DNA from: Candidatus Lindowbacteria bacterium RIFCSPLOWO2_12_FULL_62_27
GTDB taxonomy: Bacteria > Lindowbacteria > 2-12-FULL-62-27
DNA: 64,000 bases
Direction: 5' to 3'
Assembly: GCA_001784175.1 (NCBI GenBank)
Contig: MFPR01000004.1
Coordinates: 1-64,000 of the forward strand
The notes beneath the pieces are model-generated. The model was not told the origin of the DNA. It did no database searches and worked only from the letters and a program-made list of their open reading frames with translations. Positions 1 through 33,482 of this stretch are shown one piece after another. The translations under genes were made by a program, and so were the position numbers. Position 1 is the first letter of the stretch. Each line of letters starts with the position of its first letter.

Positions 1-810
1 GAGCTCCGACGGGGCGAAGATCACGAACGCGAGGAGAATCCCCAGAAAAATCGTGAAGACGCTCATTTCCTTGAGGACATGCTCCGGGAAAAACCGGAGG
101 CTCCGGTCCGGATGAAAGACCGGTTCGACGCCGACGGGATCCATCGTCGAAAGATTCTGCACGCGCATCAAAAACAAATGGATGGAAACCAACCCCACGA
201 TCACCCACGGCAGGACCACCACGTGCAGGACGTAGAATCTCGCCAGCGTCTCGCCGCTGACCGTTTCCCCGCCGCGCAAAAGGAGCGACAGGTGGTTGCC
301 GATCAGCGGCACCGCGCGCGTGACTTCCGTGCCGACCGTCGTGGCCCAGTAGGAGAGCTGGTTCCAGGGGAGAAGATACCCGGTGAAGCCGAACGTGACG
401 GTGACGCCGAGAAGCGCCACGCCGGTGACCCACGTCAGTTCCCGGGGTTTTTTGTAGCTGCCCATGACGAACACGCGAAGCATATGGAGCATGAGCATGA
501 CGATCATGAGGGTGGCGCCCCAGGAGTGCAACCCCCGGATGAGCCAGCCCGCCGGGACTTCGATCTGGATGAATTTGATCGAATCGAAGGCGTGATCGGC
601 CGTGGGCCGGTAATAGACCATGAGGAGGATGCCGGTGACGATCTGGTTGACGAGCAAAAACAGCGCGAGGCTTCCGAAAGTGTGCCACCAGGAGACGTGC
701 GGCGGGAGCGGTTTTTGGGCCTGATGCCGGGCGAAGTCTTTGACGGCGTCCCACGGGTAGCGATCGCGCAAAAAGCCTTCGACGGCGGCCTTGAGTTTCC
801 CGAGACTCAT
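1..810 (-). CDS. petB: Cytochrome b of a bc/b6-type complex (partial, runs off left edge)
   Basis: Not in the ORF track because it has no stop in the window. Manual translation from ATG 810: MSLGKLKAAV...QIVTGILLMVYYRPT...GWLIRGLHSWGA...HMLRVFVMGSYKKPRELTWVTG. Its start overlaps the Rieske gene stop. Confidence 0.93.
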   Translation of the reverse strand, partial: MSLGKLKAAVEGFLRDRYPWDAVKDFARHQAQKPLPPHVSWWHTFGSLALFLLVNQIVTGILLMVYYRPTADHAFDSIKFIQIEVPAGWLIRGLHSWGATLMIVMLMLHMLRVFVMGSYKKPRELTWVTGVALLGVTVTFGFTGYLLPWNQLSYWATTVGTEVTRAVPLIGNHLSLLLRGGETVSGETLARFYVLHVVVLPWVIVGLVSIHLFLMRVQNLSTMDPVGVEPVFHPDRSLRFFPEHVLKEMSVFTIFLGILLAFVIFAPSEL

Positions 811-6929: not shown

Positions 6930-8810
6930 ATGGTCGACATCTCTCCATATAATAATGACCCTCTCCACGCATACGCCGAGGGCTTGCGGTCGAAGTACCT
7001 CCGGAACAGGAACGTCCTTTTGGTGCAGGCGTTGCAGTTTCTGCCGTACTCGACGAATCTCGAGGTGATCTTCCGCAAGGGCTATCCCGCCTGGCCGCCC
7101 ACGGGCATCCAGCGGATCGCCAATGCGCTTGCGGGCAGAGGACTCAACATCAAGATCGTCGATTTGAATTATGAAACGCTCGAACACGTTTTCGAAACGC
7201 GCGCCTACAAGCCGGAAGACAGCCTCGAGATTCTGGACCGGCACATTGCGGAGGTCCAGCCGTCGATCATCGGCGTGTCATGCATCTGCATGTTCAGCGA
7301 CCTGCACGCGCCCACCAATCCGCTGACGATGCTGTTGGACCACTTGAAGAAGCTCGACCGGTTTGTGGTGGTGGCCGGCGGCACGGCCCTGAACAACGAC
7401 ATCGGCGGTTTTTTGCGAAGAGAGATGTGCCATTTCGCCGTGGCCGGCGAAGGCGAGGACAAAGTCCGCTACCTGATGGACGTTCTTCTCGACGACGGCG
7501 GGAAGGCGGCGCCGCGCAAGGGAATTTACTTCAAACCCGCCGACCGTCTCGAGCAGACTGACGGCGGGACCGAATGGGCGGTCCTGACCGGAGACCTGAT
7601 CGGCACGTACCAGTCGCTTCCGATTGAGAAATACCACCGGGTCGGGTGCCTGAACACGTTCTCGAGGTTCGCCGGCATGGATCGGCCCTACGGGGTGCTC
7701 CAGCTCAATCGCGGATGCCGGGCCCGGTGCCTCTTCTGCGGCGTCCCGAAATTCATGGGCCGGCCGACGCGGCACTATCCCGTTGCGGAAGTTCTGGCGG
7801 AGGTGCGGTACCAGGTGGAGGAGCGGGGCATCCGGCATCTGGACGTGATCGACGACGATTTCATCGGCGACCGGCGAACGACCTCCGAGCTGATCCAGGG
7901 GCTGATCGATCTTCGCGCCCGATACGACTTCACGTGGTCGGCCTACAACGGCCTGATCGCCTCCCAGATCACGGAGGACCTGCTGGAGCTTCTCCGGAAG
8001 GCCGGCTGTATCGGGTTTTCGATGGGCATCGAATCCGGCAATCCCGATCTTCTGCGCCGGACGCGCAAGCCCTCGAACCTGCGGGCGCTGCGGAAGGCCA
8101 GCGACATGCTGCAGCGGTTTCCGGAACTCTTCGTGGTCGGCAACTACATCCTCGGGCTTTACGATGAGGAAACCTTCGGCCAGATGCTGGATTCGTTCCG
8201 GTTCACCTTCGAGATGAAACTCGACTGGTCCGCCTTCGCGGCATTTCAGATCACCAGTTTCGGCACCGCCGTCGAGCTGGAGCGGCAGTCGGACGTCAAC
8301 CGGGCCACGCACGTTTTGCCGGCGCGCGACCGGCCGGACGGCGAAGTGGCGATCGCGGAGGGCGTGCTGGCCGGACCGGACGTGTTCCGTCTGGATCCGG
8401 ACAAAGTCCCGGCGCGCCGCCAGATTTCCCAGATATGGTTCACGTTCAATCTGGTGTCAAACTACATCGGCAACAAGCATCTGCGGCCGGGGGGCGATCC
8501 GGCCAAGTACGTCGCGTGGGTCGAGACGATCCAAGGCATCTACCCGGCCAATCCCTACATGCCGCTCTTCGCCGCGCTGGGCCGCCGGCTGATGCAAGAC
8601 CACGCCCGCGTCCCGGCGCTTCTGGAGATCGCGCGAACCAACGTGGACAAATCCGACTACTGGAGAACACGGTTCGAGCAGTTCGACCTGATGTCGGTCC
8701 TGGAAAATTTCCCCGACAGCGCGCCCGGCGCGGCCGAAACTCTGGAGGCGATGAGGGAGCGGTACGCGCCATGGATGGAGGCGGATGGACATTTAAGTCA
8801 CAAGGAGTAA
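6930..8810 (+). CDS. B12-binding-domain radical SAM protein
   Basis: N-terminal WPPTG...IGVS...VAGG...GEGE domain; RGCRARCLFC; IDDDF; GIESG. Confidence 0.88.
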   Translation: MVDISPYNNDPLHAYAEGLRSKYLRNRNVLLVQALQFLPYSTNLEVIFRKGYPAWPPTGIQRIANALAGRGLNIKIVDLNYETLEHVFETRAYKPEDSLEILDRHIAEVQPSIIGVSCICMFSDLHAPTNPLTMLLDHLKKLDRFVVVAGGTALNNDIGGFLRREMCHFAVAGEGEDKVRYLMDVLLDDGGKAAPRKGIYFKPADRLEQTDGGTEWAVLTGDLIGTYQSLPIEKYHRVGCLNTFSRFAGMDRPYGVLQLNRGCRARCLFCGVPKFMGRPTRHYPVAEVLAEVRYQVEERGIRHLDVIDDDFIGDRRTTSELIQGLIDLRARYDFTWSAYNGLIASQITEDLLELLRKAGCIGFSMGIESGNPDLLRRTRKPSNLRALRKASDMLQRFPELFVVGNYILGLYDEETFGQMLDSFRFTFEMKLDWSAFAAFQITSFGTAVELERQSDVNRATHVLPARDRPDGEVAIAEGVLAGPDVFRLDPDKVPARRQISQIWFTFNLVSNYIGNKHLRPGGDPAKYVAWVETIQGIYPANPYMPLFAALGRRLMQDHARVPALLEIARTNVDKSDYWRTRFEQFDLMSVLENFPDSAPGAAETLEAMRERYAPWMEADGHLSHKE

Positions 8811-8947
8811 TCCAAGTAATCCGGAGCAGAAAATGGCTTGAATTGAGACACTTGCTCGTCTCGATTTGTCGCGTGACACATATGTCCATAAAAAGCATTC
8901 GAAAGAGAATCAGTCCATTAAGAACGAAGTCCCTGCCGGCGGATGGA

Positions 8948-8963
8948 CGGAATGGTCTTTGCA
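8948..8963 (+). promoter_or_regulatory. Putative sigma54 -24/-12 promoter upstream of the cox-nap operon
   Basis: cGGaatggtcttTGCa; a sigma54 activator is encoded downstream in the same gene run. Confidence 0.6.
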
Positions 8964-8975
8964 CGTTCTGTACAC

Positions 8976-9096
8976 TCACCTCCTCTCCCCCCGCAGGGGG
9001 GAGAGGAATGAGGTGAGGGGGGAGGACGCGGACAGCGAGAGCCGTCGTCTGCCACCCTCACCCCAACCCTCTCCCGCCGGAAGCGGGAGAGGGGGG
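8976..9096. repeat. Palindromic REP-like element
   Basis: Hairpins cctctcccccc-gca-ggggggagagg and ccctctcccgc-cggaa-gcgggagaggg; a similar copy lies at 28042. Confidence 0.85.
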
Positions 9097-9130
9097 AACA
9101 GTTACAACGGAGTCGGGGTGACGGGCGGGC

Positions 9131-9808
9131 ATGTTTAACAATCTTCCGCAAAATATCTCAACCTATGGCGCGGACATCGACGGGATACTGTACCTGATTT
9201 ACGCCATCGTCGGGTTCTTCTTCGTGACGATGGAGGGGTACCTCGTCTATGCGGTGGTGCGATACCGCCGCCGGGAGGGCGTCCGGGCTGTGTATCAGAC
9301 GGGCGAAACGTGGCGCGAGATGCGCTGGGTGGTCGGGCTGGTGGCGGTCGTGGTGTTTCTCGATTTTCTGATCGACTTTCGTGGCGCAGACACGTGGGCG
9401 AAGGTGAAACAGGATTTTCCCTCCGGAGATGTCGAGATTCTGGTCAAGGCCAAACAGTTTGCGTGGACGTTTGTCTATCCGGGCGCGGACGGGCAGTTCG
9501 ACACGAAGGACGACCTGACCGTGCCGAGGATTCTACACGTGCCGGTCCACCGCAAGATCCGCCTGACGCTCACATCCGAAGACGTGATCCACAGTTTTTG
9601 TCTGCCGGAGGTCCGGCTGAAGCAGGACATTCTGCCGGGGCGCCGGACGCCCGCATGGTTTGAGGTCACGCGCACGGGAACCTTCAGCCTTGTCTGCGCC
9701 GAGCTGTGCGGGCTCGGCCACACGAAGATGCTCGGCGTGCTGGAAGTCCACGACGACTCCGGCTATGAACGCTGGCTGGCCGAAACGGCGAAGGAGATGT
9801 TCGAATGA
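9131..9808 (+). CDS. coxB: Heme-copper oxidase subunit II (CuA)
   Basis: Two TM helices, QFAW, DVIHSF, CAELCGLGHTKM. Confidence 0.93.
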   Translation: MFNNLPQNISTYGADIDGILYLIYAIVGFFFVTMEGYLVYAVVRYRRREGVRAVYQTGETWREMRWVVGLVAVVVFLDFLIDFRGADTWAKVKQDFPSGDVEILVKAKQFAWTFVYPGADGQFDTKDDLTVPRILHVPVHRKIRLTLTSEDVIHSFCLPEVRLKQDILPGRRTPAWFEVTRTGTFSLVCAELCGLGHTKMLGVLEVHDDSGYERWLAETAKEMFE

Positions 9809-11505
9809 CGAACGATCCGCACGGCCCGCAGAAATTCATATGGAAATACATCTTATCGACCGACCACAAGATGATCGCCAAGCAGTATCTGCTGACGGGG
9901 CTGGTCATGGCGCTGGTCGGCGCCTTCACCGCCTATCTCATGCGCTGGCAGCTCGGATATCCGAACACGAATGCGCCCGGATGGGGATTGGTCACGCCGG
10001 ACAAGTTCAACATGCTGGTCACGATGCACGGCACCATCATGGTCTTCTTCGTCGGCATGCCGCTTCTCGTCGCGGCCTTGTCGAATTTCGTCATCCCGCT
10101 CCAGATCGGCGCGCGCGACATGGCCTTCCCGCGTCTCAACATGCTCTCATACTGGATTTTCGTTCTCTCGTGCGTGGCGCTGCTCGCGTCGTTTTTCGTG
10201 CCCGGCGGCGCGCCCGCCGGCGGCTGGACCGGTTATCCGCCGCTGTCGGCGAGCGAGCAGTACACGGGCGTCCACTGGGGCATGGTGCTGTGGATCACGG
10301 CCCTGGCGCTGGAGTTCGCGTCCTTCACGATGGGCGGGATCAATTATCTCGCGACCTTCATGTGCCTTCGCGTTCCCGGCATGACGTACTTCCGGGTGCC
10401 GATGGCGACGTGGTTTCTGATCGGCGCGTCTTTGGCGTTTTTCTTTTCGGTCGGTCCCCTGATTGCCGGCGCGGTGATGCTGCTTTTGGACAACGTGGCG
10501 GGCACGGGATTTTATATTCCGGCGCAGGGCGGCGAGCCGCTCCTGTGGCAGCACCTGTTCTGGTTTTTCGGCCATCCGGAGGTCTACGTGATTTTCCTGC
10601 CGGCGGTGGGCTGTGTTCTGGAGATTCTGCCGGTTTTTTCGCGCAAGCCCATTTTCGGATACCGGGCGATCGTGTGGAGCATGGGGGCGGCCCTGGCGCT
10701 GTCCTACATTGTTTGGGCGCATCACATGTTCATCAGCGGGATGAATCCGCGCCTCGCGACGCCGTTTTCGATCACGACCATTCTGATCTCGGTCCCGTTC
10801 GCCGTCATCATCTTCTGCATGTTGGCGTCGCTTCGGCAGGGATCGATCCGCCTCGACACGCCGATGCTCTGGGGACTCGGGTTTCTGGCGACCTTCCTCA
10901 TCGGCGGGCTGACCGGCATATTCTTAGGCTCGGCTTCGGCCGACATTTACCTTCACGACACCTATTTCGTGGTCGCGCACTTCCATTACACGTTCTTCCC
11001 ATCGGTCTTTTTCGGCGGATTCGCCGGCATCTATTTCTGGTACCCGAAACTGTTCGGACGGCGGTACAATGAAACGCTCGGCAAAATCCATTTCTGGATG
11101 ACCTTCATTTTCTTCAACGCCACCTTCTGGCCCATCTTCCGTGTCGGCGCCGGCGGGATGCTCCGCCGCATCGCCGACCCCACGCAGTACAGGATCCTCG
11201 ACCAGTTCAAGGAAATGAATTCGATGATCAGCGTCGCGGCCTTCATCCTGATCCTCGGGCAGGTTCCGTTCGTGTGGAATTTTTTCTGGAGCATGTTTCG
11301 CGGTCCCGCGGCGGACGCCAATCCCTGGCGGGCCGGCACGCTCGAATGGCTCGCGCCCTCGCCGCCTCCGCACGGAAACTGGGGACCGGGTCTGCCGACC
11401 GTCTACGTCGGGCCCTACGAGTACAGCCGGCCGGACATGGCCGACGATTTCGTGCCGCAGTACCGGCCGGTCGGCGTGCTGGGCGGCCCAGCGGGTCAGG
11501 CCTGA
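9805..11505 (+). CDS. coxA: Heme-copper oxidase subunit I, A1-type motif with atypical K-channel
   Basis: TMHGTIM, RDMAFPRLN, WFFGHPEVY, WAHHMF, HDTYFVVAHFHY, MLRR. Confidence 0.95.
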   Translation: MTNDPHGPQKFIWKYILSTDHKMIAKQYLLTGLVMALVGAFTAYLMRWQLGYPNTNAPGWGLVTPDKFNMLVTMHGTIMVFFVGMPLLVAALSNFVIPLQIGARDMAFPRLNMLSYWIFVLSCVALLASFFVPGGAPAGGWTGYPPLSASEQYTGVHWGMVLWITALALEFASFTMGGINYLATFMCLRVPGMTYFRVPMATWFLIGASLAFFFSVGPLIAGAVMLLLDNVAGTGFYIPAQGGEPLLWQHLFWFFGHPEVYVIFLPAVGCVLEILPVFSRKPIFGYRAIVWSMGAALALSYIVWAHHMFISGMNPRLATPFSITTILISVPFAVIIFCMLASLRQGSIRLDTPMLWGLGFLATFLIGGLTGIFLGSASADIYLHDTYFVVAHFHYTFFPSVFFGGFAGIYFWYPKLFGRRYNETLGKIHFWMTFIFFNATFWPIFRVGAGGMLRRIADPTQYRILDQFKEMNSMISVAAFILILGQVPFVWNFFWSMFRGPAADANPWRAGTLEWLAPSPPPHGNWGPGLPTVYVGPYEYSRPDMADDFVPQYRPVGVLGGPAGQA

Positions 11506-11507
11506 TC

Positions 11508-12095
11508 ATGGACGGCGCGGCGCACTCGGATTCGGCGCAGATGCCGACGGCGCACTTCACCGCCAAGCTGGCGATCTGGTGGCTGATCGGGTCGGAGATC
11601 ATGATCTTCGGCGGGCTCATCGGATCGTTCATCCTGTTTCGGCTGGCCCGCCCGCAGTGGGCGGAGATGGCGCATCATCTCAGCGTGCCCATCGGGTCCT
11701 TCAATACGCTGATTCTGCTGACCAGCAGCTACACCATGGTACGGGCCTTCGTGTCCTCCGGACGCCGCGACCGGACCGCCACCTGCTGGAATCTTCTGGT
11801 GACGGCGCTTCTGGGACTCACGTTTCTGTGCGTGAAGGGATACGAGTACGCCGGAAAATTCTCGCACGGATATTACCCGAACGCGGGACTCTTCTGGGCG
11901 TTTTATTTCACGATGACCGGCCTGCACGCGCTGCACGTGCTGATCGGGATCATCGCGATTCTCATTCTGTTCGTGTTCGGCCTGCGCGACCGGCTGTGGC
12001 CGATCGCGAGCCGCGTCGAGTTCACGGGCCTCTACTGGCATTTCGTCGACGTGGTGTGGATCTTCCTATTTCCGTTGTTGTATCTGACATCATGA
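11508..12095 (+). CDS. coxC: Heme-copper oxidase subunit III-like protein
   Basis: SEIMIF, NTLILLTSS, TGLHALHV, YWHFVDVVW. Confidence 0.9.
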   Translation: MDGAAHSDSAQMPTAHFTAKLAIWWLIGSEIMIFGGLIGSFILFRLARPQWAEMAHHLSVPIGSFNTLILLTSSYTMVRAFVSSGRRDRTATCWNLLVTALLGLTFLCVKGYEYAGKFSHGYYPNAGLFWAFYFTMTGLHALHVLIGIIAILILFVFGLRDRLWPIASRVEFTGLYWHFVDVVWIFLFPLLYLTS

Positions 12096-12382
12096 CCGAG
12101 TCCGGCGCGGCGCGCCCCCGGTATTTCACGATCTGGGTGTGGCTGGTGGTATTGACGCTCGCGTATCTCGCGGAGCGGCTGATCGGCGTGCCTCACCGGA
12201 TCGCGCTGGGCCTGGTGTTCGGAATTGCGCTCGTGAAGGCGCTCTTGGTGGCATGGAACTACATGCATCTTCGGCACGAAAGCCGGATGATTTTCGTCAT
12301 TCTTCTCATTCCGATTCTTCTCTTCGCGATTCTGGTCACGCTCTTGCTCCCGGACATCGCATTCGTCGGAGTCGGGAAATGA
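12092..12382 (+). CDS. Oxidase subunit IV family protein
   Basis: 3 TM; KALLVAWNYMHLRHE motif; ATGA coupling. Confidence 0.85.
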   Translation: MTESGAARPRYFTIWVWLVVLTLAYLAERLIGVPHRIALGLVFGIALVKALLVAWNYMHLRHESRMIFVILLIPILLFAILVTLLLPDIAFVGVGK

Positions 12383-12969
12383 CGGCGGCGCCCGCGGACT
12401 CGATCGCGTCCGACCGGCCCGCGCCGCTCGTTTCCAAAGTGGGGATGGCGCTCTTCATCGGCACGGAAGCCATGTTTTTCGCCGGCCTCATCAGCGCCTA
12501 CCTGGTGTTCCGGGTCGGCAATCCGAACTGGCCGCCGGCCGGCCAGCCGCGGCTGCCGGTGGAATCGACCGCGTTCAACACGCTGATCCTGCTCCTCAGC
12601 GCCGCGTTCTGCCATCGGGCGGTCTCGACGCTCCGCGCCGGTCTCGCCAGATCCTCCGCGTACTGGCTGGGACTCACTGCCGTCTTCGGCCTGTTTTTTC
12701 TCGTCCTTCAGGGCCGGGAATGGATCCGGCTGGTGCAATTCGGCCTGACGCTGACCTCGAGCGTTTACGGCGGCCTTTTTTATACCCTCATCGGCGTCCA
12801 CGGTCTTCACGTGCTCGCCGGTACGGCGCTGGTTCTGTACGTCCTGAAACGATCCGTGGAGGGCCGGTATTCGGCGGCGTATCCGCTCGGCGTGGAGCTT
12901 GCCCGAATGTACTGGAACTTCGTCGTCGCCCTCTGGCCGGGCCTCTACTTCCTGGTTTACCTCTTGTGA
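12379..12969 (+). CDS. Second subunit III-like protein
   Basis: TEAMFFAGL, NTLILLLS, GVHGLHV, YWNFV. Confidence 0.88.
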   Translation: MTAAPADSIASDRPAPLVSKVGMALFIGTEAMFFAGLISAYLVFRVGNPNWPPAGQPRLPVESTAFNTLILLLSAAFCHRAVSTLRAGLARSSAYWLGLTAVFGLFFLVLQGREWIRLVQFGLTLTSSVYGGLFYTLIGVHGLHVLAGTALVLYVLKRSVEGRYSAAYPLGVELARMYWNFVVALWPGLYFLVYLL

Positions 12970-12971
12970 TC

Positions 12972-13172
12972 ATGCGCCGCATGGCGCTGTTCACGTTTGT
13001 GTTCGCCGTTGTCTCGCCGGCCTTCGGCTGTCCGCTCTGTTTCGGTTCAACGCCCTATGAGTTGGGTCTCTACTGGTCGGTGCTTTTTCTTCTTCCCGTG
13101 CCGTTTGTCATTGTCGGTGTGCTGATCGCATGGATTCGCCGTCAGTCTGACGGAAATATTAAGGAGGGATAA
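12972..13172 (+). CDS. Small membrane protein with CPLC motif
   Basis: Signal-like N-terminus, AFGCPLCFG, C-terminal TM; fills the gap in the operon. Confidence 0.65.
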   Translation: MRRMALFTFVFAVVSPAFGCPLCFGSTPYELGLYWSVLFLLPVPFVIVGVLIAWIRRQSDGNIKEG

Positions 13173-13175
13173 AAC

Positions 13176-15500
13176 ATGAGTGTTTACGGAGACCGCCGCG
13201 ATTTTCTTAAAAGAATGGCCTGGTATTCGTCCGCCGGCGCCGCGATATCCCTGATGCCGGGGGTGTCAATGGAGGCGTGGAGCGACTTCGAAGGCGACGC
13301 GGCCGAAATTGTGTGGAAGAAATCGCCGTGCCGATTCTGCGGCACCGGCTGTGGCCTTCTGATCGGCCTTGCGAGGGACCGCGCCGTCGCCGTGAAAGGC
13401 GATCCGAACTCGCCCGTCAACAAGGGGCTCTGCTGCGTCAAGGGCTACCACTCCGTCCAGATGCTGTACGGGAAGGACCGCCTGACGAAGGCCTTGGTGC
13501 GAAAGAACGGCGAGCTCGTCGAAACGCCGATTCAAGACGCGCTCGATCTTGTGGCCGCCAAAATGAAGGAGACCATCGGCGCGCGCGGCAAGGACGCCGT
13601 CGCGATTTACGGGTCCGGCCAGTGGACCATTCCCGACGGATACGTCGCGACCAAATTTTTCAAGGCGGGACTGGGGACGAACAACATTGAAGCCAACGCG
13701 CGGCTCTGCATGGCCAGCGCCGTGACGGGATTTATGACCACGTTCGGGTTGGACGAGCCGATGGGCTGTTACGACGACATCGATCACGCCGACACCTTTA
13801 TCCTCTGGGGCAACAACATGCCGGAAATGCATCCGATTCTTTTTTCCCGTGCGCTCGAAACCCGCCGCCAGAAGGAGTCGGGACTCATCATCGACCTCGG
13901 CACCCGGACAACCCGGGCCAGCTACGGCGCCGACAAATCGATCCTCTTCAAGCCGCAGACGGACCTGGCGCTGGCCAACGCGATCTGCCGGGAACTCTTC
14001 CGCACGGGGCTGGTCAACCAGGATTTCGTGAAGAAGCACGTGACGTTCAAAAAAGGCAAGACCAACATCGGATACGGCCTCGAGGACAAATTCAAATTCG
14101 ACGACGAGGCCGTCGAGATCGGCGTGAGGGAGTATCAGGCCTTTCTCGAGGACTACACACCGGAAAACGTGGAAAAAATTTCCGGCGTCCCGGCGACGGA
14201 CATCCGGTACCTGGCGCAACTGTACGGCGACCCGAAACGAAAGGTTGTCTCGTTCTGGTGCATGGGAATGAACCAGCACACGCGCGGCACATGGATCAAC
14301 AACCTCGTCTACAACCTGCACCTTCTGACCGGAAAAATCTCCACGCCCGGCAACAGCCCCTTTTCCCTCACCGGCCAGCCCAGCGCCTGCGGCACGTCAC
14401 GCGAGGTCGGCACGTTCACGCACCGGCTGCCGCACGGCGTCGTGACCAACGAGCACGATCGCGAGATGGCCGCCAAAATCTGGAAAGTGCCGGTCGAAAA
14501 AATCCCGGCGAAGCCCACCTACCACACCGTCGAGATGTTCCGGGCGCTGGACCGCGGGGACATCCAGTTTCTCTGGATACAGGCGACCAACCCGTTTCTC
14601 ACGATGCCGAAACTGCGGCGGTACCGGGACGGCGCCAAAAAGGAGGGCCGGTTCATCGTCGTGTCGGACGTCTATCCCACGCCGACCACCGACATCGCCG
14701 ACGTGATTTTGCCGTCCGCGCTCTGGATCGAGCGCGAAGGCATGTTCGGCAACGCGGAGCGCCGCACGCAGCATTTCGAGAAGATGGTCGACCCGCCCGG
14801 CGACGCGATGCCGGACGGCTGGCAGCTCATCGAGGTCGCGCGGAGGCTCGGGTACGGAGAGCTTCTGCCTTATTCGAAGAAGACCTGGGTTCAGGAGGTC
14901 TGGGAGGAGTACCGGCAGTTTCAACACGGCCCCGCGCATGAGATGGCGTCCTACGAGGACCTCCGCCGCCAGCCGGGCGTGATGTGGCCGCACGTGAACG
15001 GCAAGTCCACCAAGTGGCGGTACAACACGGCATACGATCCGGCGGCGAAGGGAGAGGGTGAATTTGATTTTTACGGGAACAAGGACCACCGCGCGGTCGT
15101 CTGGCAGCGTCCGTATGAGCCGCCGCCCGAATCGCCGGATGGGGAGTTTCCGTTCTGGCTCTGCACCGGGCGCGTGCTCGAACACTGGCACAGCGGGTCA
15201 CTCACCCGGCGGATCCCCACGCTGCACCGGGCCGTGCCGGAGGCGTATGTCGAGATCCATCCCGCCGACGCGGACCGGCTCGGCATCCGCAACAAGGACC
15301 CGGTCCGGCTGACGACCCGCCGAGGGACCCTGACGCTGCCGGCCAGCATCAATGGCCGGGCCGTGCCGCCGGCCGGCATGGTGTTCGTGCCGTTTTTTGA
15401 CGAGCGCTACCTGATCAACGAGCTGACGCTCGACGCATTCTGCCCGATCTCGAGACAGCCCGACTACAAGAAGTGCTCCGTGAAAGTGGAGCGCGCATGA
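13176..15500 (+). CDS. napA: Periplasmic nitrate reductase catalytic subunit
   Basis: Tat RRDFLK; CRFCGTGC...C; NARLCMASAV; MGMNQH; LTGQPSACGT; DYKKC.V terminus. Confidence 0.92.
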   Translation: MSVYGDRRDFLKRMAWYSSAGAAISLMPGVSMEAWSDFEGDAAEIVWKKSPCRFCGTGCGLLIGLARDRAVAVKGDPNSPVNKGLCCVKGYHSVQMLYGKDRLTKALVRKNGELVETPIQDALDLVAAKMKETIGARGKDAVAIYGSGQWTIPDGYVATKFFKAGLGTNNIEANARLCMASAVTGFMTTFGLDEPMGCYDDIDHADTFILWGNNMPEMHPILFSRALETRRQKESGLIIDLGTRTTRASYGADKSILFKPQTDLALANAICRELFRTGLVNQDFVKKHVTFKKGKTNIGYGLEDKFKFDDEAVEIGVREYQAFLEDYTPENVEKISGVPATDIRYLAQLYGDPKRKVVSFWCMGMNQHTRGTWINNLVYNLHLLTGKISTPGNSPFSLTGQPSACGTSREVGTFTHRLPHGVVTNEHDREMAAKIWKVPVEKIPAKPTYHTVEMFRALDRGDIQFLWIQATNPFLTMPKLRRYRDGAKKEGRFIVVSDVYPTPTTDIADVILPSALWIEREGMFGNAERRTQHFEKMVDPPGDAMPDGWQLIEVARRLGYGELLPYSKKTWVQEVWEEYRQFQHGPAHEMASYEDLRRQPGVMWPHVNGKSTKWRYNTAYDPAAKGEGEFDFYGNKDHRAVVWQRPYEPPPESPDGEFPFWLCTGRVLEHWHSGSLTRRIPTLHRAVPEAYVEIHPADADRLGIRNKDPVRLTTRRGTLTLPASINGRAVPPAGMVFVPFFDERYLINELTLDAFCPISRQPDYKKCSVKVERA

Positions 15501-16174
15501 TCTGGGAATCGGACCGGCGGATTTTTTTCGTCGGCCTGGGAATCGCCGCGATGGCCGTGCTGGTCATGTTCGTGGGTCCGGAACTTTTCGATTACCGGCC
15601 GGTCGCGTCGCGCGCCGACCCCCGCAGCGTCGACCTTCCGACCTCGAAACGCGATGTGGCGGCGGAGGCGGAGCCGATGCGGAAGCCGGCGTACGTCGTC
15701 CCGGCGCGCGCCGACGCGGACACGCGGACGTGGACCAAGTACGAAAGCCGCCGGGCCTTTCCCGGCGCGCCGCCGGCCATTCCCCATCCGGTGTCTGACG
15801 GGCCGGCATGGGAAAGCGGGAAAGTCTGCACCGCATGCCACGCCAGGGGCGGATATGTCCCGAAATACAACGCGTACGCCCCTGTGACGCCGCATCCGAA
15901 TTTCTCCTCTTGCCGCCAGTGCCACGTGCCGCGCCTGACAGACAAGTTATTTCGCGAAACCGCCTGGGCCACCGTCGCGCGTCCGAAAACCGGCCTCCGG
16001 GCCATGCCCGGCGCGCCGCCGGCGATCCCGCATTCCCTGCAGATGCGCGAAAACTGTCTCGCCTGCCATTCGGGTCCCAGCTCGGTGCCGGCCATCCGGT
16101 CGAGCCACCCGGACCGCGGCAACTGCCGGCAGTGTCATGTGCCGCGAGTCACCGATGAGCCGTTTGAACGGTGA
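15497..16174 (+). CDS. Tetraheme NapB-like cytochrome (two tandem diheme units)
   Basis: Two GAPPAIPH...CxxCH...CRQCHVP repeats; N-terminal TM. Confidence 0.85.
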   Translation: MIWESDRRIFFVGLGIAAMAVLVMFVGPELFDYRPVASRADPRSVDLPTSKRDVAAEAEPMRKPAYVVPARADADTRTWTKYESRRAFPGAPPAIPHPVSDGPAWESGKVCTACHARGGYVPKYNAYAPVTPHPNFSSCRQCHVPRLTDKLFRETAWATVARPKTGLRAMPGAPPAIPHSLQMRENCLACHSGPSSVPAIRSSHPDRGNCRQCHVPRVTDEPFER

Positions 16175-16743
16175 AACATATGACGATACAGTTCTTTGCC
16201 ATTCTCCTCCTCGCTTGCATCGGCTGCGGCAGCGAGCATCACATGTCATTGATGGAAAAAATCGAGCGCGCGGCGCCGGCGGCAGCCGCACCGGCGACGG
16301 ACTCGGGCGTGCGCCTGTTTTCGGTCCTGAGCCGCCAGGACAAGCTGGCCCACTTTCCCTGCCGAGGCTGTCATACCGACGGATTCAACCTGTCCGCCGC
16401 GGCCAAGCGCCCGCAGGAGAGGCGATCGCACTGGGACGTGGAGCTTCGGCACGCGCCGGCCGACGTCATGACCTGCGCGACCTGTCATGACTACCGCGAT
16501 TTAAATCATTTGAATAAAAACAACGGCGAGGCCGTGTCCTTCGACGAGCCCTCCGCGGTCTGCCGGTCATGCCATTTCCAGCAGTTCAAGGACTGGTCCG
16601 GCGGCGCGCACGGGAAGCAATTCAAATCCTGGACTCCGCCGCGCGTCCGCTACAACTGCACCACCTGCCACAATCCGCATCGCCCGGCGTTCCAGAAACG
16701 CTGGCCGGTGACGTATCCGAGCGTGCCGAGGAGGTATCCATGA
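16171..16743 (+). CDS. Tetraheme cytochrome c lipoprotein
   Basis: Lipobox-like IGC; CRGCH, CATCH, CRSCH, CTTCH. Confidence 0.85.
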   Translation: MKHMTIQFFAILLLACIGCGSEHHMSLMEKIERAAPAAAAPATDSGVRLFSVLSRQDKLAHFPCRGCHTDGFNLSAAAKRPQERRSHWDVELRHAPADVMTCATCHDYRDLNHLNKNNGEAVSFDEPSAVCRSCHFQQFKDWSGGAHGKQFKSWTPPRVRYNCTTCHNPHRPAFQKRWPVTYPSVPRRYP

Positions 16744-17750
16744 GCGGCGGGGCGAAGGCATGGTTTCAATCGTGGCTGCGGAAATGGAACGGCCCGGCGG
16801 GCGGTTGCGGTGCAGGTCTCTTGTCGAAATCCATCGGCCGGCGCGACGCGCTGAAAATGCTCGGCGGCGGCGCGGCGGCGAGCGGGGCGGTCGTGAACGC
16901 GTTCGCGCCGGTGAATCTCCTCTCCGGCTCATCCGAAGAGCGGGAAAAGGCCGTGATCGACTGGAAGGAATTTTTCAAAACCAACTACCGTTTGATGAAC
17001 GACCGGGAGCGCGCGGACACCATCGAGCGACTCGAACGCAAATACAAACTCGAACGCAACCTCGACGTGAAGATCAGCACCGCAGGGCCGCTGCCGAACG
17101 TCCTGTACGGATACGCCTTCAACCTGTCCAAGTGCAAAGGCTACCGCGAATGCATCCGGGCCTGCATTCAGGAGAACAACCAGGACCGCGCCAGCAACAT
17201 GCAATACATCCGGATTTTCGAAAAGCCCATGGGGTCGATGAGCGTGGAAAGCGGCGACGCCCGGTATTATCACGAGGTGCCGGCCGAGGGCCACTTCTAC
17301 ATGGGAACCCAGTGTTTCCAGTGCGACAATCCGCCCTGCGTGCGGGTCTGCCCGACGGGCGCGACGTGGAAGGAACAGGACGGGATCGTCGTGATCGACT
17401 ACGACTGGTGCATCGGCTGCCGGTACTGCCAGGCCGCCTGTCCCTACTGGGCGCGGCGGTTCAACTGGAAGGAGCCGACGGTCCCCAACGAGGAGGTCAA
17501 TCCGAACCAGCACTATCTCGGGAATCGCCTGCGAAAAAAAGGCGTGATGGAAAAATGCACGTACTGCATCCAGCGCACGCGCCAGGGACGCCTGCCGGCC
17601 TGCGCCGAGGCCTGTCCCACCGGCGCGCGCACGTTCGGCAATCTCCTCGACCCCGGCAGCGAGATCCGGTACATCCTCGCGCACAAGAAGGTCTTCCGGC
17701 TGAAGGAAGACCTGAATACCGAACCGAAGTTCTGGTACTACATGGACTGA
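16740..17750 (+). CDS. NrfC/TtrB-like 4Fe-4S dicluster protein
   Basis: Tat RRDALK; CFQCDNPPC..VCP, CIGCRYC..ACP, KCTYC...PAC..ACP. Confidence 0.9.
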   Translation: MSGGAKAWFQSWLRKWNGPAGGCGAGLLSKSIGRRDALKMLGGGAAASGAVVNAFAPVNLLSGSSEEREKAVIDWKEFFKTNYRLMNDRERADTIERLERKYKLERNLDVKISTAGPLPNVLYGYAFNLSKCKGYRECIRACIQENNQDRASNMQYIRIFEKPMGSMSVESGDARYYHEVPAEGHFYMGTQCFQCDNPPCVRVCPTGATWKEQDGIVVIDYDWCIGCRYCQAACPYWARRFNWKEPTVPNEEVNPNQHYLGNRLRKKGVMEKCTYCIQRTRQGRLPACAEACPTGARTFGNLLDPGSEIRYILAHKKVFRLKEDLNTEPKFWYYMD

Positions 17751-18970
17751 TGCCAATGACTCTCATCTATTTCCTCCGGGACGCCTTGCGTGAAGCCACG
17801 AGCGGCGGGCGCAAATATCATCTCTGGATGGGCGCGCTCACGCTCGTCATGCTGACCGGCGCCTACGCCTACTCGATCCAGTTCCGCGAAGGGCTTGGCG
17901 TGACCGGCATGACCGACCACGTGAGCTGGGGTCTCTACATTTCGAACTTCACCTTTCTCGTCGGCGTCGCAGCGGCGGCCGTCATGCTCGTGATGCCGGC
18001 CTACATCCTGCACGACGTCGATTTCAAGCGCGCGGTGATGCTGGGCGAGGGCGTGGCGGTGTCGGCGGTCGTCATGTGCCTCTGTTTCGTGATGGCGGAC
18101 ATGGGCGGGCCGCACCGGGGATGGCATCTCATCCCGGTGATCGGCTATTTCAACTGGCCGCAGTCGATGCTGACGTGGGACGTGATCGTGCTGAACGGAT
18201 ACCTCGCGCTGAATCTGCTCATTCCATTTTACATCCTGTTTTCGCATTATCGAAACCGCGATCCCAATCCAACGCTCTACGTGCCGTTCGTGATCCTGTC
18301 GGTTTTCTGGGCGGTCAGCATTCATCTCGTGACCGCCTTCCTGTACGCGGGGCTCGTCGCCCGGCCGTTCTGGAACAGCGCCCTGATGGGGCCGCGGTTT
18401 CTCGCGTCCGCCTTCGCCGCGGGCCCGGCGCTCATCCTGCTGGCGCTCGCCGTCATCCGCTCGCAGACGTCCTTCGCGATCGAGGACACGACGATCCGGA
18501 AACTCAGCCTGGTCATCACGGTGGCCGCGCAGATCAATCTGATCATGCTGGGCTGCGAGGTCTTCAAGGAATTCTACTGGCCATCGGAACATAGCGCGAG
18601 CGCCGTCTACCTCTTTTTCGGCCACCACGGCCATCATGCGCTGAATCCATGGATATGGACGTCCATCGCGATGAATGTCGTCGCCACGGGGATCATGACC
18701 GTTCACTCGGCGCGGCGATGCCATCACCTCCTGTATCCCGCCTGCGTCCTGCTGTTCACGGCGATCTGGATCGAAAAGGGCATGGGACTCATCGTGCCGG
18801 GATTCATCCCCTCCCCGCTCGGCGAGCTGGTCGAATACATGCCGACATGGATCGAGGTCGCGGTGACGCTGGGCATCTGGGCGACCGGGCTCTTCGTCTT
18901 CACCGTGCTGGTCCGGGTCGCCCTGCCGATTGAACTTGGGCGCCTCCGGGCGCCGGGGACGAATCGATGA
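17750..18970 (+). CDS. NrfD/PsrC family membrane anchor
   Basis: TGMTD.VSWGLYI.NF.F.VG; DMG.P.R; P.S...WD; about 10 TM. Confidence 0.9.
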   Translation: MPMTLIYFLRDALREATSGGRKYHLWMGALTLVMLTGAYAYSIQFREGLGVTGMTDHVSWGLYISNFTFLVGVAAAAVMLVMPAYILHDVDFKRAVMLGEGVAVSAVVMCLCFVMADMGGPHRGWHLIPVIGYFNWPQSMLTWDVIVLNGYLALNLLIPFYILFSHYRNRDPNPTLYVPFVILSVFWAVSIHLVTAFLYAGLVARPFWNSALMGPRFLASAFAAGPALILLALAVIRSQTSFAIEDTTIRKLSLVITVAAQINLIMLGCEVFKEFYWPSEHSASAVYLFFGHHGHHALNPWIWTSIAMNVVATGIMTVHSARRCHHLLYPACVLLFTAIWIEKGMGLIVPGFIPSPLGELVEYMPTWIEVAVTLGIWATGLFVFTVLVRVALPIELGRLRAPGTNR

Positions 18971-20361
18971 CAGGCGCGCAACCCGTCGTGCGGTCCGGCA
19001 GTCCGTGGCCTTTCTGGACAGGGCTTGCGTTGCAGCTCATCCTTGCGTGGGCGGCGGTTTTCGGCGCCTACGAGCTGATCGAACGATATTATCTTCAGGA
19101 TACCGGCCCCGCGCTCTTGCATCGGCTGCACATTCTGCGCGGGAGCGGCACGTCATTTTTGCTGGCGCTTCTGGCCGCGCGCGCCATGTACCGGCGGCGG
19201 GAGGAGCTGATCGTCGAGGCGAAGAACCGGCTGGCGGCGGAAAAATCGCGGCAGGACGAGATTCTGGCGGGACTCGGCGCCGGCCTCATCGTGCTCGACG
19301 CGTCGTTCAAGGTGACGTACGCGAACGCCCAGGCGCAAAAATGGCTGGGGACGAAACTCGCGAATTGCCTCTGCATCGTCGAGGATTGCCCGATGGGCCG
19401 GGACACCGGCGTGTGCCCGGCGCGGGTTTCGGCGCTTCAAAAAGGATGGGTGTCGTTTGAGGAAAAAATTGAAACGCCCGACGGGACGCGATACCTGTAC
19501 ATCACGGCGTCGCCCATCGGAGGCGGCAACGGCCGGCCGCCGGACGCCATCATCGAACTCGTTCAGGACATCAGCCCCATCAAGGCCATGGAGGCGAAAC
19601 TCCGGCAGACGATCATGGCCGCGCGCGTCGGCGCCATCGCCGCCGGCGTCGCACACCAGCTCGGCAATCCCCTCGCCTCGCTCACCGCGGCGGTCGAACG
19701 GCTTCTCAGCCTGGGCGCCGACAAGCAGGACGCGTACGCGCGATACCTGCGGCGCATCGAGGTCGAGGCCGAGCGGGCCGTCCACATCGTGCGGTCCCTG
19801 ATGGACCTGGCGCGCCGCGTCAAGGACCAGGAGTCGCGCCCGGAAGACTGCACGCATCAGGCCGACCTTCACGCAACCGTCACCGAGGCGGTCGAGATCG
19901 TTTCGGAAACATACAGCGAGATTCGTTCCTTTCTCAAACTCCATCTGCCCGACCATCCCCTGCCGGTCCGGGCCAACCCGACGGACGTCCGGGAGGTGCT
20001 GGTGAACCTGCTGGAAAACGCCGTCGAAGCCATGGTGGGTCGCGACGCGCAGCGGCTGGCCATCCATGCCGCCGAGGACCGCGGATCGGTGCTTCTGCAG
20101 GTGTGCGACAGCGGGCCGGGCATCGAAGAGGCGGCTCGCGACAAGATTTTCGAACCATTTTTCTCGACGCGCCGGGAGGGCACCGGCCTGGGCCTTTATC
20201 TGTGCCGGCAGATCGTCGAATCCTACGGTGGAGAGATCCGCGCGGACAACCTGCCGGCCGGCGGTGCGCGGATTCTGGTCCGGTGGCCGGCCGGTCGGCC
20301 GGCCGGTCGATCGCCGGTCGCCGGTGGCGCGCACACCGGCGCGCAGGCGGATCATCCATGA
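18967..20361 (+). CDS. PAS-containing sensor histidine kinase
   Basis: 2 TM, PAS, AHQLGNPL, NLLENA, DSGPG, GTGLGL. Confidence 0.92.
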   Translation: MTGAQPVVRSGSPWPFWTGLALQLILAWAAVFGAYELIERYYLQDTGPALLHRLHILRGSGTSFLLALLAARAMYRRREELIVEAKNRLAAEKSRQDEILAGLGAGLIVLDASFKVTYANAQAQKWLGTKLANCLCIVEDCPMGRDTGVCPARVSALQKGWVSFEEKIETPDGTRYLYITASPIGGGNGRPPDAIIELVQDISPIKAMEAKLRQTIMAARVGAIAAGVAHQLGNPLASLTAAVERLLSLGADKQDAYARYLRRIEVEAERAVHIVRSLMDLARRVKDQESRPEDCTHQADLHATVTEAVEIVSETYSEIRSFLKLHLPDHPLPVRANPTDVREVLVNLLENAVEAMVGRDAQRLAIHAAEDRGSVLLQVCDSGPGIEEAARDKIFEPFFSTRREGTGLGLYLCRQIVESYGGEIRADNLPAGGARILVRWPAGRPAGRSPVAGGAHTGAQADHP

Positions 20362-23630: not shown

Positions 23631-24111
23631 ATTTTCGGATTTGACGCCGGAAGAAGTCTTGCGGGTCGCCATTGGGGTTGAGATTGCCAACGGGGAGAGG
23701 CTGCGGACATTTGCGGACATGTTTTCTCAACAGTCGCCGGAAGCGTCGTCTGTTTTCAAGGAAATGGCGGAGGAGGAGGATCAGCACAAGGCTGTGCTGG
23801 TGGCGAGATACGCGCAAATCTACGCCAAGCTGGCCGACCCATTGCCGGAATCCGAAATCTCGGATGTCCTGGAGGCCCACGATCTTCAGGATGCGGAGCA
23901 TTTTATTTTCGACGATATGGACGCCCGCGCGGCGCTCAAAGCGGTGTTGGCGGCGGAGAATGTCGCGATGGATTTTTATCGCCGCGCCGTTCCTACCGCC
24001 GCCACGGATGAGCTGCGCGCGGTTTATGCGGAACTGGCCGATGGCGAGGCGGACCACGTCCGGCGCGTTCAGGAGCGGTTGGCGGCGCAGGGGATGCGAG
24101 ATGCCGGATGA
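23620..24111 (+). CDS. Rubrerythrin/ferritin-like diiron protein
   Basis: AI..E, MAEEEDQH, AE.....FY, LADGEADH motifs. Confidence 0.85.
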   Translation: MARKFSDLTPEEVLRVAIGVEIANGERLRTFADMFSQQSPEASSVFKEMAEEEDQHKAVLVARYAQIYAKLADPLPESEISDVLEAHDLQDAEHFIFDDMDARAALKAVLAAENVAMDFYRRAVPTAATDELRAVYAELADGEADHVRRVQERLAAQGMRDAG

Positions 24112-25589
24112 ATGCGCTCGAAACGATCGAGCGGCGGAGCGCCGCGGCGCCGACGGGATTACCCGAACCGTCCAAGCGCACGTTCCTGACCGGCCGGCGA
24201 ATGGAACTGTTCGAAAAATTCCCCCGGCTCTACTGGCTGGTCACGCGGCGGTGGTTTCAGTTTGCTGTCGTGGTCCCCAACCTGCTTTTCTTCTACGCGT
24301 TTCTGATCGCCGGCGTGTTTGGATCTCCGGTCGGCAACCGGAACATCATCATCATTTTTATCTGGATTCTCTGGTGGTTCGCGCTGATTACGGCGCTGGT
24401 GCCGTTCGCATCGCGAGTCTGGTGCACCGTGTGTCCCCTGCCGTTTTTCGGCGACTGGATCCAGCGCCGGGCGCTCATCAATGTCCGAACCGGCCGAACC
24501 TGCGGGCTTCAAAATCAAATGTACGGATTAAACAAGAAGTGGCCGAAGGCCCTGTCCAACATCTGGCTTCAGAACATCGCATTCCTGGGTCTTTGCACTT
24601 TTTCCGCCATGCTGGTGACCCGGCCGATCGTGACGGTGTGGGTGCTGGGCAGTCTCATCGTCCTTGCGGCGCTCATGGCGGGGGTCTTTCGCGGGCGAAC
24701 CTTCTGCAATTACGTTTGTCCCATCAGCGGATTTCTGTCGCTGTTTTCCATGACGTCGACGCTGGCGTTGCGGTCAAAGGATCTCGACGTGTGCGCCAAA
24801 TGCAAAACGAAGTCGTGCTCGGTCGGGAGCGACAAGGGCTGGGCCTGCCCCTGGGGCATCTACATGGGCAAACTCGATCGCAACAATTATTGCGGGCTGT
24901 GCATGGAATGCGTCAAATCCTGCCCCAACGACAACATCGGGTTGTTCCTCCGGCCGGCGATGTCCGACACGCGGATCAAGGGGTACGACGAATCCTGGAA
25001 GGCGTTCATCATGCTGACGCTCGCGGCCGCCTACTCGATCGTTTTGCTCGGGCCTTACGGAATCGTGAAGGACTTCGCGAACGTCGCCGAGGTCGGCGAC
25101 TGGAAGGGATTTGGAATCTATGCCGGCGGGCTGTGGTTGACGGCGCTGGCGGCGCTGCCGGCCGCGTTCGCCGCATGCGTGTGGATCGGACGGCGTCTTG
25201 CCGGTCGAAGCGACCTTGGGCAGAAAGAAATATTTCTGGGACTGAGTTACGTCTTCGTTCCTATGGGCCTTTTGGCGTGGATCGCGTTCAGCTTTCCCCT
25301 CATCATGATCAACGGCTCGTACATTCTGAACGTGATGTCGGATCCGATGGGTCGCGGCTGGGATTTGTTCAGGACGGCGCAAATTCACTGGTCGCCCATT
25401 CTGCCGGAATATGTCGGTTGCATCCAGGCGCCGCTCCTTTTCCTCGGCGCCTTCTACGCGATTCGCGCCGGATACAGGTTCGCGCTCGAAAAAACAGGGA
25501 CACCGGCCGTCGCGGTTCGGCTGGCCGCGCCCGTTTCGATTCTCGTTACGGCGATCACGCTCGCGTTTCTGAAGCTGTTTGTGGGATGA
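24108..25589 (+). CDS. Polytopic 4Fe-4S membrane protein (NapH/NosR/CcoG-like)
   Basis: WCTVCP, FCNYVCP, CAKC....C, CP, CGLCMEC..SCP; many TM helices. Confidence 0.85.
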   Translation: MNALETIERRSAAAPTGLPEPSKRTFLTGRRMELFEKFPRLYWLVTRRWFQFAVVVPNLLFFYAFLIAGVFGSPVGNRNIIIIFIWILWWFALITALVPFASRVWCTVCPLPFFGDWIQRRALINVRTGRTCGLQNQMYGLNKKWPKALSNIWLQNIAFLGLCTFSAMLVTRPIVTVWVLGSLIVLAALMAGVFRGRTFCNYVCPISGFLSLFSMTSTLALRSKDLDVCAKCKTKSCSVGSDKGWACPWGIYMGKLDRNNYCGLCMECVKSCPNDNIGLFLRPAMSDTRIKGYDESWKAFIMLTLAAAYSIVLLGPYGIVKDFANVAEVGDWKGFGIYAGGLWLTALAALPAAFAACVWIGRRLAGRSDLGQKEIFLGLSYVFVPMGLLAWIAFSFPLIMINGSYILNVMSDPMGRGWDLFRTAQIHWSPILPEYVGCIQAPLLFLGAFYAIRAGYRFALEKTGTPAVAVRLAAPVSILVTAITLAFLKLFVG

Positions 25590-27999: not shown

Positions 28000-28000
28000 G

Positions 28001-29314: not shown

Positions 29315-29317
29315 CGG

Positions 29318-33414: not shown

Positions 33415-33482
33415 GAAAATTCCAAGCACGGTCGCCGCAGGGGACAGGGGCCAAACCCCGATGCGGCATGGCGGCTTGATTT

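Follow-up and report, generated by a model that had tools for sequence, protein, structure and literature searches.

Loss of the K-channel has been described as a repeated event within family A of the heme-copper oxidases (HCOs) (Degli Esposti et al., 2021, Front Microbiol 12:664216, PMC8239418). The bacterial A1 groups tabulated in that survey as being without it (Table S1 and the table of Figure S7) are the 'Oligoflexia' and, under the label 'KC channel', Elusimicrobia, Ca. Calescamantes and Methylacidiphilaceae. Replacement of the K-channel Lys by I, V, L or M together with a retained D-channel has been described for the aa3 oxidases of acidophilic iron oxidizers (rus operon, Acidithiobacillus and relatives), in which the Glu of subunit II is replaced as well (bioRxiv 10.1101/2020.03.01.968255). 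In the Aeropyrum COX13 clade (row A. camini), the Lys is replaced by Ala and the Thr by Phe, an entry marked 'no, modified' (PMC8239418), and an A-type aa3 cytochrome c oxidase (aoxABC) has been isolated from A. pernix (Ishikawa et al., 2002, as cited in PMC3062577). Here we describe coxI, a gene for HCO subunit I located in the first 64,000 nucleotides of contig MFPR01000004.1 of Candidatus Lindowbacteria bacterium RIFCSPLOWO2_12_FULL_62_27 (hereafter the window; C4:1-64000 in our genome inventory). Judging from its sequence, CoxI descends from and works like the A1 oxidases, yet it fails the textbook K-channel feature of that family. We consider it probable that the genes coxII-coxI-coxIII-coxIV-coxIII encode a working aa3-type CuA O2 reductase in which the K path was closed once, in the common ancestor of a large and old A1 clade, and to which protons would be delivered via the D-channel. 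Lys-less A-type oxidases are already in print, and the gain in knowledge is therefore incremental. The features on which this reading depends are the following.

9805..11505, + strand: coxI, A1-type HCO subunit I without the canonical K-channel, 566 amino acids (PF00115 and PDB matches)

10777..10815, + strand: helix VIII stretch TILISVPFAVIIF, residues 325-337, with F332 and I335 in place of T359 and K362 (alignment to 7rh5_R)

10618..10620, + strand: codon of L272, which takes the place of S299 in helix VI (106/121 homologs carry Leu and 1/121 Ser; 105/114 K-containing relatives carry Ser)

10312..10326, + strand: codons of E170-F171-A172-S173-F174 in helix IV, the S197 to S201 positions of the D-channel (alignment counts)

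The assignment of CoxI to the A1 family was supported by several lines of evidence. The COX1 domain (PF00115) was matched over residues 24-481 with an E-value of 1.2e-135, and A1 aa3 chains in the PDB matched with E-values of 1e-116 to 1e-131, the best being the mycobacterial CtaD 7rh5_R (E 2.9e-131). A-type chains reached 442 bits, while the best match among ba3 enzymes, 4gp8_A, reached only 27 bits (E 1.1e-5). The preliminary description of this locus had reported all six His ligands, the Glu and Tyr of the HPEVY motif, the Asn, Asp and Asn of the D-channel and the Arg pair, and each of these could be located (H75, H257, H306, H307, H392 and H394; E259 and Y261; N94, D105 and N112; R454/R455). 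The six His residues comprise two ligands of the low-spin heme, one of the high-spin heme and three of CuB, and helix VI carries both the Tyr and the Glu that distinguishes A1 from A2 (H257-P-E259-V-Y261). A CuA-bearing subunit II and subunit III genes accompany coxI, and a heme A synthase gene (COX15/CtaA, 107 bits) was found on contig C20 of the same genome. What CoxI does not have is the K-channel as defined by S299, T359 and K362 of subunit I; the Glu of transmembrane (TM) helix 2 of subunit II that belongs to it is still present as E63.

In comparison with the canonical A1 aa3 enzymes (R. sphaeroides 1m56, P. denitrificans 1ar1 and mycobacterial 7rh5), the window oxidase shares the fold family, the metal ligands, the cross-link Tyr, the D-channel, the CuA subunit and subunits III and IV. 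It differs in having L, F, I, C and M in place of S299, T359, K362, S365 and W366, in having E and F in place of S197 and S201, and in possessing subunit III as two short copies. Assignment to other HCO groups was not supported. According to Murali et al. (2024, PMC11214002), NO reductases within the superfamily lack the active-site Tyr, and cNOR, qNOR, eNOR, sNOR, gNOR, bNOR and nNOR have lost this Tyr and/or have a changed CuB/FeB ligand set (PMC11214002), whereas Tyr261 and all three CuB His are conserved in CoxI. The ba3-type B family has no D-channel, a Lys-free K-analog being its only proton path, while the D-channel of CoxI is fully present.

Positions were compared by HMMER alignment to 7rh5_R, in which the window segment 'fsittilisvpfaviif' lies on 'fsfmtfliavptgikff', and R. 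sphaeroides numbering was transferred via 1m56_A (query 67 = chain 94, offset 27). Canonical residue names follow PMC10341450 and, in part, general usage. With this offset, E286 corresponds to E259, Y288 to Y261, H333/H334 to H306/H307 and N207 to N180, and the K-path positions are occupied as follows: S299 by L272, T359 by F332, K362 by I335, S365 by C338 and W366 by M339. The earlier statement that helix VIII at 10777-10815 is without the K-channel Thr and Lys was thus exact. The helix VIII codons showed no differing letter in contigs from other public runs (X3 record 5, X5 record 17 and X6 record 26), and the pattern is therefore not an assembly artifact.

To judge conservation, we used the best 120 of 8000 scored homologs, which were 62-80% identical to CoxI and together with it make a set of 121. 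F332 was present in 121/121. At position 335, we counted Ile 81, Met 25, Val 11 and Leu 4 times and Lys not once. The S365 position held Ala in 97 and Cys in 17 of the 121, and the W366 position Met in 114. All metal ligands and D-channel residues were kept in 120-121/121. The source names of the 120 homologs included NC10/Methylomirabilales, Deltaproteobacteria, Binatia, Acidoferrales, Nitrospira and Alphaproteobacteria, from metagenome-assembled genomes (MAGs).

These counts bear on the possibility that CoxI is a decaying or non-catalytic paralog that lost its K-channel under relaxed selection. Such decay might be suspected from the score against the best NCBIfam model, TIGR02891 (the CtaD_CoxA equivalog), which at 590 bits lies below the curated cut-off of 670.75, and from the existence of a second A-type paralog in the genome. 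However, it is not only the ligands that are conserved but the replacement residues themselves, and catalytic and D-channel residues kept in 120-121/121 along with F332 in 121/121 rule out decay as we see it. Moreover, the reading frame is intact and the genes are translationally coupled, the coxI ATG overlapping the coxII stop; the second paralog and its orthologs in three related genomes are also without the Lys; and the order of the operon is conserved across phyla. We therefore regard decay as scarcely credible. A low CtaD score has a further consequence. The public label of ten homologs (P0022, P0030, P0040, P0058, P0060, P0067, P0069, P0082, P0096 and P0106) is 'cbb3-type cytochrome c oxidase subunit I', which is misleading for enzymes with an HPEVY motif and a CuA subunit, and which is likely caused by scores under the CtaD equivalog cut-off. 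Together, such scores and labels can skew surveys of aerobic respiration based on groundwater and soil metagenomes.

The history of the loss was followed in a tree of 216 sequences, built with FastTree and rooted at the midpoint. The input consisted of the window protein, 80 genome-locus proteins, every sixth of the 120 homologs (20 in all) and 116 full-length representatives at 50% identity, and only rows that covered at least 400 of window positions 60-499 were kept. CoxI fell in a clade of 41 of the 216 sequences (support 1.0) in which Lys was present in 0/41. This Lys-less clade has four parts: the window subclade ('VPFAxIxF'), a 'VPIAEMxF' subclade, Calescibacterium L024 and L004. Its sister is a K-containing clade of Acidobacteriota type, with Lys in 24/24, although sisterhood had a support of 0.64. 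Thus, the loss maps to one old branch. Across the full-length representatives, 46 of 116 were without Lys at the K362 column (having Q, L, I, V, M and others), and Lys-less enzymes are therefore frequent within the A family.

The 'VPIAEMxF' subclade, which also has the motif 'WAHHQF', comes from Gemmatimonadota, Longimicrobiales, Myxococcota, Bdellovibrionaceae, Eisenbacteria and others. In its loci (L005-L018, L020, L021, L033, L034 and L040) the Lys is replaced by Met or Leu within 'ISVPIAEMxF', and a Glu is conserved one residue before the Lys position (17/17), with Ile there in L020. This Glu may represent a different answer to the loss of the K-channel. A separate case was seen inside a K-containing clade, in L035 (a MAG named 'uncultured proteobacterium'), where the Lys is lost ('VPAALVTFN') and Gln stands at two CuB His positions ('GQPEIY' and 'WGQHM'); unlike the conserved Lys-less clade, this oxidase is probably a degenerating copy.

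In the first six columns and the COX2 column of the table of Degli Esposti et al. (PMC8239418), the window oxidase would read Y, L, I, F, C, E and E. At P. denitrificans positions S291, K354 and T351, F, T and F are given for 'bacterium HR19 (Calescamantes)', where the window has L, I and F, and both are A1 enzymes of the HPEVY type (PMC8239418). Calescibacterium L024, whose helix VIII reads 'VPFSMTLV', falls in the same 41-member clade as the window, and from its near-matching pattern and taxon name we infer that it is the HR19 entry. In the tabulated part of that survey, the window subclade, whose source names include NC10, Methylomirabilales, Binatia, Deltaproteobacteria and Nitrospira, is not listed as lacking the Lys; the 'Gemmatimonadetes' subtype, which seemingly holds the K-containing neighbors of the window, is marked 'generally yes' for the K-channel; and the 'a-III' subtype, which the window resembles in its gene order with two COX3 genes, is marked 'yes' (PMC8239418).

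Lys-less enzymes described elsewhere differ further. The acidophilic iron-oxidizer aa3 oxidases resemble that of the window in having I, V, L or M for Lys and in keeping the D-channel (bioRxiv 10.1101/2020.03.01.968255), but they retain the Thr at T351, have extra N-terminal helices, are placed in class A2 by the HCO classifier, come from acidophile hosts and are not close relatives of the window's clade. The COX13 enzymes of Aeropyrum and other archaea differ from the window in being archaeal and in having subunits I and III fused, and their loss of Lys was independent. A literature search for the Lys-less clade or for the helix IV Glu discussed below returned only the papers of Degli Esposti, that of Murali et al. 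and one simulation paper. Within the tables and text of PMC8239418 considered here, neither the window subclade, nor the 'VPIAEM' subclade, nor the Glu170/Phe174 pair is described; its supplementary figures may show more sequences of the clade.

The D-channel is conserved throughout the window subclade. Residues corresponding to D132, N121, N139, S142, Y33, S200 and N207 were all found in CoxI, and among the 121 sequences D105, N94, N112, N180 and S115 were each present in 121/121, S173 in 113/121 and Y28 in 102/121 (Phe in 17). A change was found near the top of the channel, at two of the residues S197, S200 and S201 that are named as belonging to it (PMC10341450). At the S197 position, E170 occurred in 37/41 members of the Lys-less clade and in 0/175 sequences outside. 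It covaried perfectly with position 174: 102 of the 121 had the pair E170 and F174, while the remaining 19 had A, V, L or T at 170 combined with S or T at 174. The Glu170/Phe174 pair is specific to the Lys-less clade, and the either-or pattern at the two positions indicates that the D-channel is under selection. We considered Glu170 as a general substitute for the Lys and rejected it, since 19/121 Lys-less members do without the Glu. The alternation between Glu170/Phe174 and Ala/Ser174 identifies specific residues for mutation.

We then asked what has replaced the K-channel, using a three-way comparison of the 121 window-subclade members, 17 members of the 'VPIAEM' subclade and 114 K-containing relatives. 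Ser in place of A356 (S329) was found in 121/121, 17/17 and 1/114, respectively. S292 was found in 110/121 of the window subclade, its position being occupied by Thr in 17/17 of the 'VPIAEM' subclade and by Ala in 100/114 K-containing relatives. S300 was found in 119/121 of the window subclade and also in 38/114 K-containing relatives. In the larger tree, Ser at 329 was present in 41/41 of the Lys-less clade and, outside of it, in 21/47 Lys-less compared to 1/128 K-containing sequences, counts that ignore kinship. T396 in the motif 'HFHYTFFP', which had been noted as atypical at the outset, was indeed present in 41/41 of the clade, while 131/175 sequences outside had Val and 14/175 Thr. The preliminary description had named a compensating Lys in a reference alignment as one finding that would overturn it. 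None appeared in helix VIII or TM6-7, and neither Lys nor Arg was found among the clade-specific conserved positions in TM6-TM8; the sole clade-specific Lys, K26, is in TM1, near the D-channel and outside the K-path. Within subunit I, the lower K-path is hydrophobic, and the upper part has gained hydroxyls.

The condition of subunit II and of the remaining cox genes bears on the same question.

9131..9808, + strand: coxII, subunit II with the CuA center, 225 amino acids (PF00116; TIGR02866 at 150.5 bits, over cut-off)

11508..12095, + strand: coxIII-like gene a, 195 amino acids (PF00510, E 3.6e-16)

12092..12382, + strand: coxIV, caa3-type subunit IV, 96 amino acids (PF03626; TIGR02229 at 41.4 bits, cut-off 37.25)

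12379..12969, + strand: coxIII-like gene b, 196 amino acids (PF00510, E 5.3e-23)

The CuA ligands H154, C189, C193, H197 and M200 as well as W112 were present in 121/121 CoxII homologs. Because the active site is of the O2 type, CuA and the Trp are invariant and heme A synthesis is encoded, we read the enzyme as an O2-reducing oxidase. CoxII E63 aligned with the Glu of 'pleiaw' in R. sphaeroides 1m56_B, which we take to be E101 in precursor numbering (PMC10341450). This entry-Glu column held Glu in 68 and Gln in 49 of the 121 CoxII homologs, and the Glu was present in 4/22 Lys-less loci versus 40/40 K-containing loci. The order coxII-coxI-coxIII-(coxIV)-coxIII was conserved across phyla, and a second COX3-like gene followed coxI in 18/21 Lys-less loci of the genome collection.

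One alternative is that protons enter under helices VI-VIII near CoxII E63 and reach Tyr261 via water held on S322, T324, T325, S329, S292 and S300, a substitute K-like path that would resemble the Lys-free K-analog of the B family or the 'KC' pattern of Degli Esposti et al. The constancy of Ser329 throughout the 41-member clade, its enrichment in other Lys-less lineages, the high frequencies of S292 and S300 and the retention of E63 in the window and in its nearest relative would all fit such a path. S329 also appears to correspond to S309, a conserved Ser in the ba3 enzyme of T. thermophilus (S309 according to PMC11214002), and similar patterns, in Elusimicrobia and Calescamantes HR19, are tabulated as 'KC-channel' (PMC8239418). 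However, the hydroxyls occupy only the upper half, whereas F332, I335, C338/A338, M339 and L272 below them are hydrophobic in nearly all members. In addition, Gln replaces the subunit II Glu in 49/121 homologs, the sister subclade varies at this position, and S292 and S300 also occur in some K-containing enzymes, as the count for S300 shows. We therefore consider a substitute path unlikely.

The reading that we prefer remains that of a working O2 reductase supplied through the D-channel. Electrons from a periplasmic donor, either cytochrome c or a cupredoxin, would pass to CuA and the conserved Trp of subunit II, then to the low-spin heme and finally to the heme-CuB-Tyr site, as the conserved ligands suggest. 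L272, F332, I335, C338 and M339 would fill the lower K-path and leave no proton relay there. With the D-channel fully kept (D105, N94, N112, S115, Y28, S173, N180 and E259) and the K-path apparently closed, the D-channel would convey not only the pumped protons but those substrate protons, too, that are otherwise supplied by the K-channel in the reductive half-cycle. The top of the D-channel exists in two interchangeable forms, either Glu170 with Phe174 or a small residue with Ser174, and the hydroxyls near the active-site Tyr (S292, S300 and S329) may hold proton-passing water.

Several points weigh against this reading. Canonical K362M mutants are almost inactive with O2, although they keep peroxidase activity, and a working D-only enzyme must therefore differ from them in ways that are invisible to sequence. 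The description of the K-path as 'sealed' comes solely from the chemistry of the residues that line it. E63 is kept in the window and in its closest relative, so a residual entry site is possible, and E170 is not obligatory, being absent in 19/121 Lys-less members. Finally, the tree was made by FastTree with a midpoint root, and the residue associations ignore relatedness.

As a more tentative extension, on which we would not quite wager, the clade may represent a natural single-channel A-type proton pump in which all eight protons per O2 pass via the D-channel, its top having been rebuilt in two ways and feeding both the pump site and the active-site Tyr. If true, this would mirror the B family, where the K-analog alone is used, and would allow the need of canonical oxidases for two channels to be tested in a natural system. 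The textbook view holds the K-channel Lys to be essential for loading the active site with protons, and here a conserved and widespread bacterial A1 lineage does without it while keeping its D-channel. Both oxidase paralogs of the genome are Lys-less, and they offer natural material on how one channel could serve both catalytic half-cycles.

These paralogs were identified in an inventory of the 4.39-Mb assembly, which is 94% complete, and our collection contained three other genera of the same family. The genome holds two strong HCO genes, neither with the Lys. The second, on contig C14, is 49% identical to CoxI (tblastn) and reads 'ISIPSVMVLTC' in helix VIII; its orthologs in G001, G002 and G003 are likewise without Lys. 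No HCO with the K-channel Lys was found in this 94%-complete genome. The match to a bd-like oxidase was weak (40.9 bits), and the nearest genome, G001, additionally has a cbb3-like CcoN. A weak third PF00115 hit (C4:69726, L003) was rejected as an oxidase and corresponds to an NnrS/DUF1858 protein. It lies just past the window, at 68226-72392 of contig C4, where a narJ-like chaperone gene is followed by a gene for a 624-residue protein with an NnrS core flanked by DUF1858 domains.

Downstream of the cox genes the window contains nap genes, separated from them by a small open reading frame (ORF).

12972..13172, + strand: small ORF between the cox and nap genes, 66 amino acids, one predicted TM helix and a CPLC motif (position and conservation)

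13176..18970, + strand: genes for NapA, a napB-like cytochrome c, a multihaem cytochrome, a DsrO-like FeS protein and a DsrP/NrfD-like membrane protein (tightly packed)

The small ORF had no Pfam or NCBIfam match; it is found in the same place in G001 with 52% identity and could encode a small accessory protein of the oxidase or of Nap. NapA matched NF010055 at 979 bits, and the DsrP-like NrfD protein matched NF045798 at 419 bits (cut-off 350), while the DsrO-like FeS protein scored 183 bits, below its cut-off of 200. The genes after napA are not napC or napGH but those for the napB-like multihaem protein, the multihaem cytochrome and the DsrO-like and DsrP-like proteins, and the genes at 13176-18970 are probably an unusual quinol-oxidizing module for Nap. 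Gaps or overlaps between neighbors in the cox-nap row are at most 4 bases, except for a 28-base overlap of napA and the napB-like gene as called. A terminator and promoter scan of 8700-19600, a weak kind of evidence, revealed no terminator-like site between 12969 and 13176; all of its consensus matches lay inside genes, and the stretch from coxIIIb to napA had none.

The preliminary description had proposed a variant enzyme with altered proton delivery or with another substrate (NO, peroxide), and had regarded this as consistent with the location beside napA. The first part is a fair inference, given the hydrophobic lower K-path and the subunit II Glu that is not fixed; the second found no support. 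An enzyme that uses another oxidant (H2O2 or NO) in partnership with the adjacent periplasmic nitrate reductase, and that has no need of a K-channel, would fit with the packing of cox directly against nap in the window genome and in G001 with no terminator-like site in between. The peroxidase activity that persists in canonical K-channel mutants would fit as well, and slow NO reduction is possible for A-family oxidases (PMC11214002). On the other hand, Tyr261 and the three CuB His, kept in 120-121/121, mark the active site as one of the O2-reductase type, and Lys-less A-family enzymes are common and catalogued. The 94%-complete genome yielded no nirK, only a marginal cd1-like (nirS-like) match of 25.3 bits, and no NosZ over cut-off, and two dedicated di-haem cytochrome c peroxidases are encoded 14 kb downstream.

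The nap genes themselves also argue against a partnership. Among the 21 Lys-less loci elsewhere, with flanks of up to 10 kb, napA lay beside the cox genes in none, and the sole napA match near Lys-less cox loci (L033) was 25% identical, on the opposite strand and 7 kb away. G001 shows full synteny with the window down to the 66-codon ORF, and its CoxI is intact and 80-81% identical (tblastn). Its napA, however, is a remnant covering residues 210-505 of 774 with a frameshift, followed by residues 133-233, the last 100, of the napB-like protein (L096, G001:C53, 11714-12875); no counterpart of the downstream genes for the cytochrome, the FeS protein and the NrfD protein was found in the 20-kb stretch covered. 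With napA decayed and cox intact in G001, and with no such junction in the 21 other loci, the cox-nap junction is therefore family-specific and the oxidase outlives it. Although adjacent to cox, the nap genes do not accompany the oxidase as a conserved partner, and an enzyme dedicated to NO or peroxide is in our view very improbable.

Additional redox genes were observed further along the window. The segment 23109-26172 encodes a 493-residue membrane protein (24108-25589) with a small cupredoxin on either side, both cupredoxins carrying a CuA-like C-x3-C-x3-H-x2-M motif. The membrane protein had no Pfam match at E <= 1e-5, and it was considered as a divergent HCO and rejected, being a membrane protein with cysteine-rich ferredoxin-like motifs. 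The region, which has a Crp/FNR regulator on one side and two peroxidases on the other, forms a module of CuA and polyferredoxin type. At 26794-37935, two genes for di-haem cytochrome c peroxidase/MauG proteins are followed by an arsenite-oxidase-like pair, consisting of a Rieske protein and a Rieske_3/molybdopterin protein, and then by genes for a cytochrome c, a sensor kinase and a sigma-54 response regulator. ArsC-like and Acr3-like genes are located at 21759 and 48295-49815. Taken together, the genes from the peroxidases to those resembling ArsC and Acr3 have the appearance of an island for arsenite oxidation next to the oxidase and Nap.

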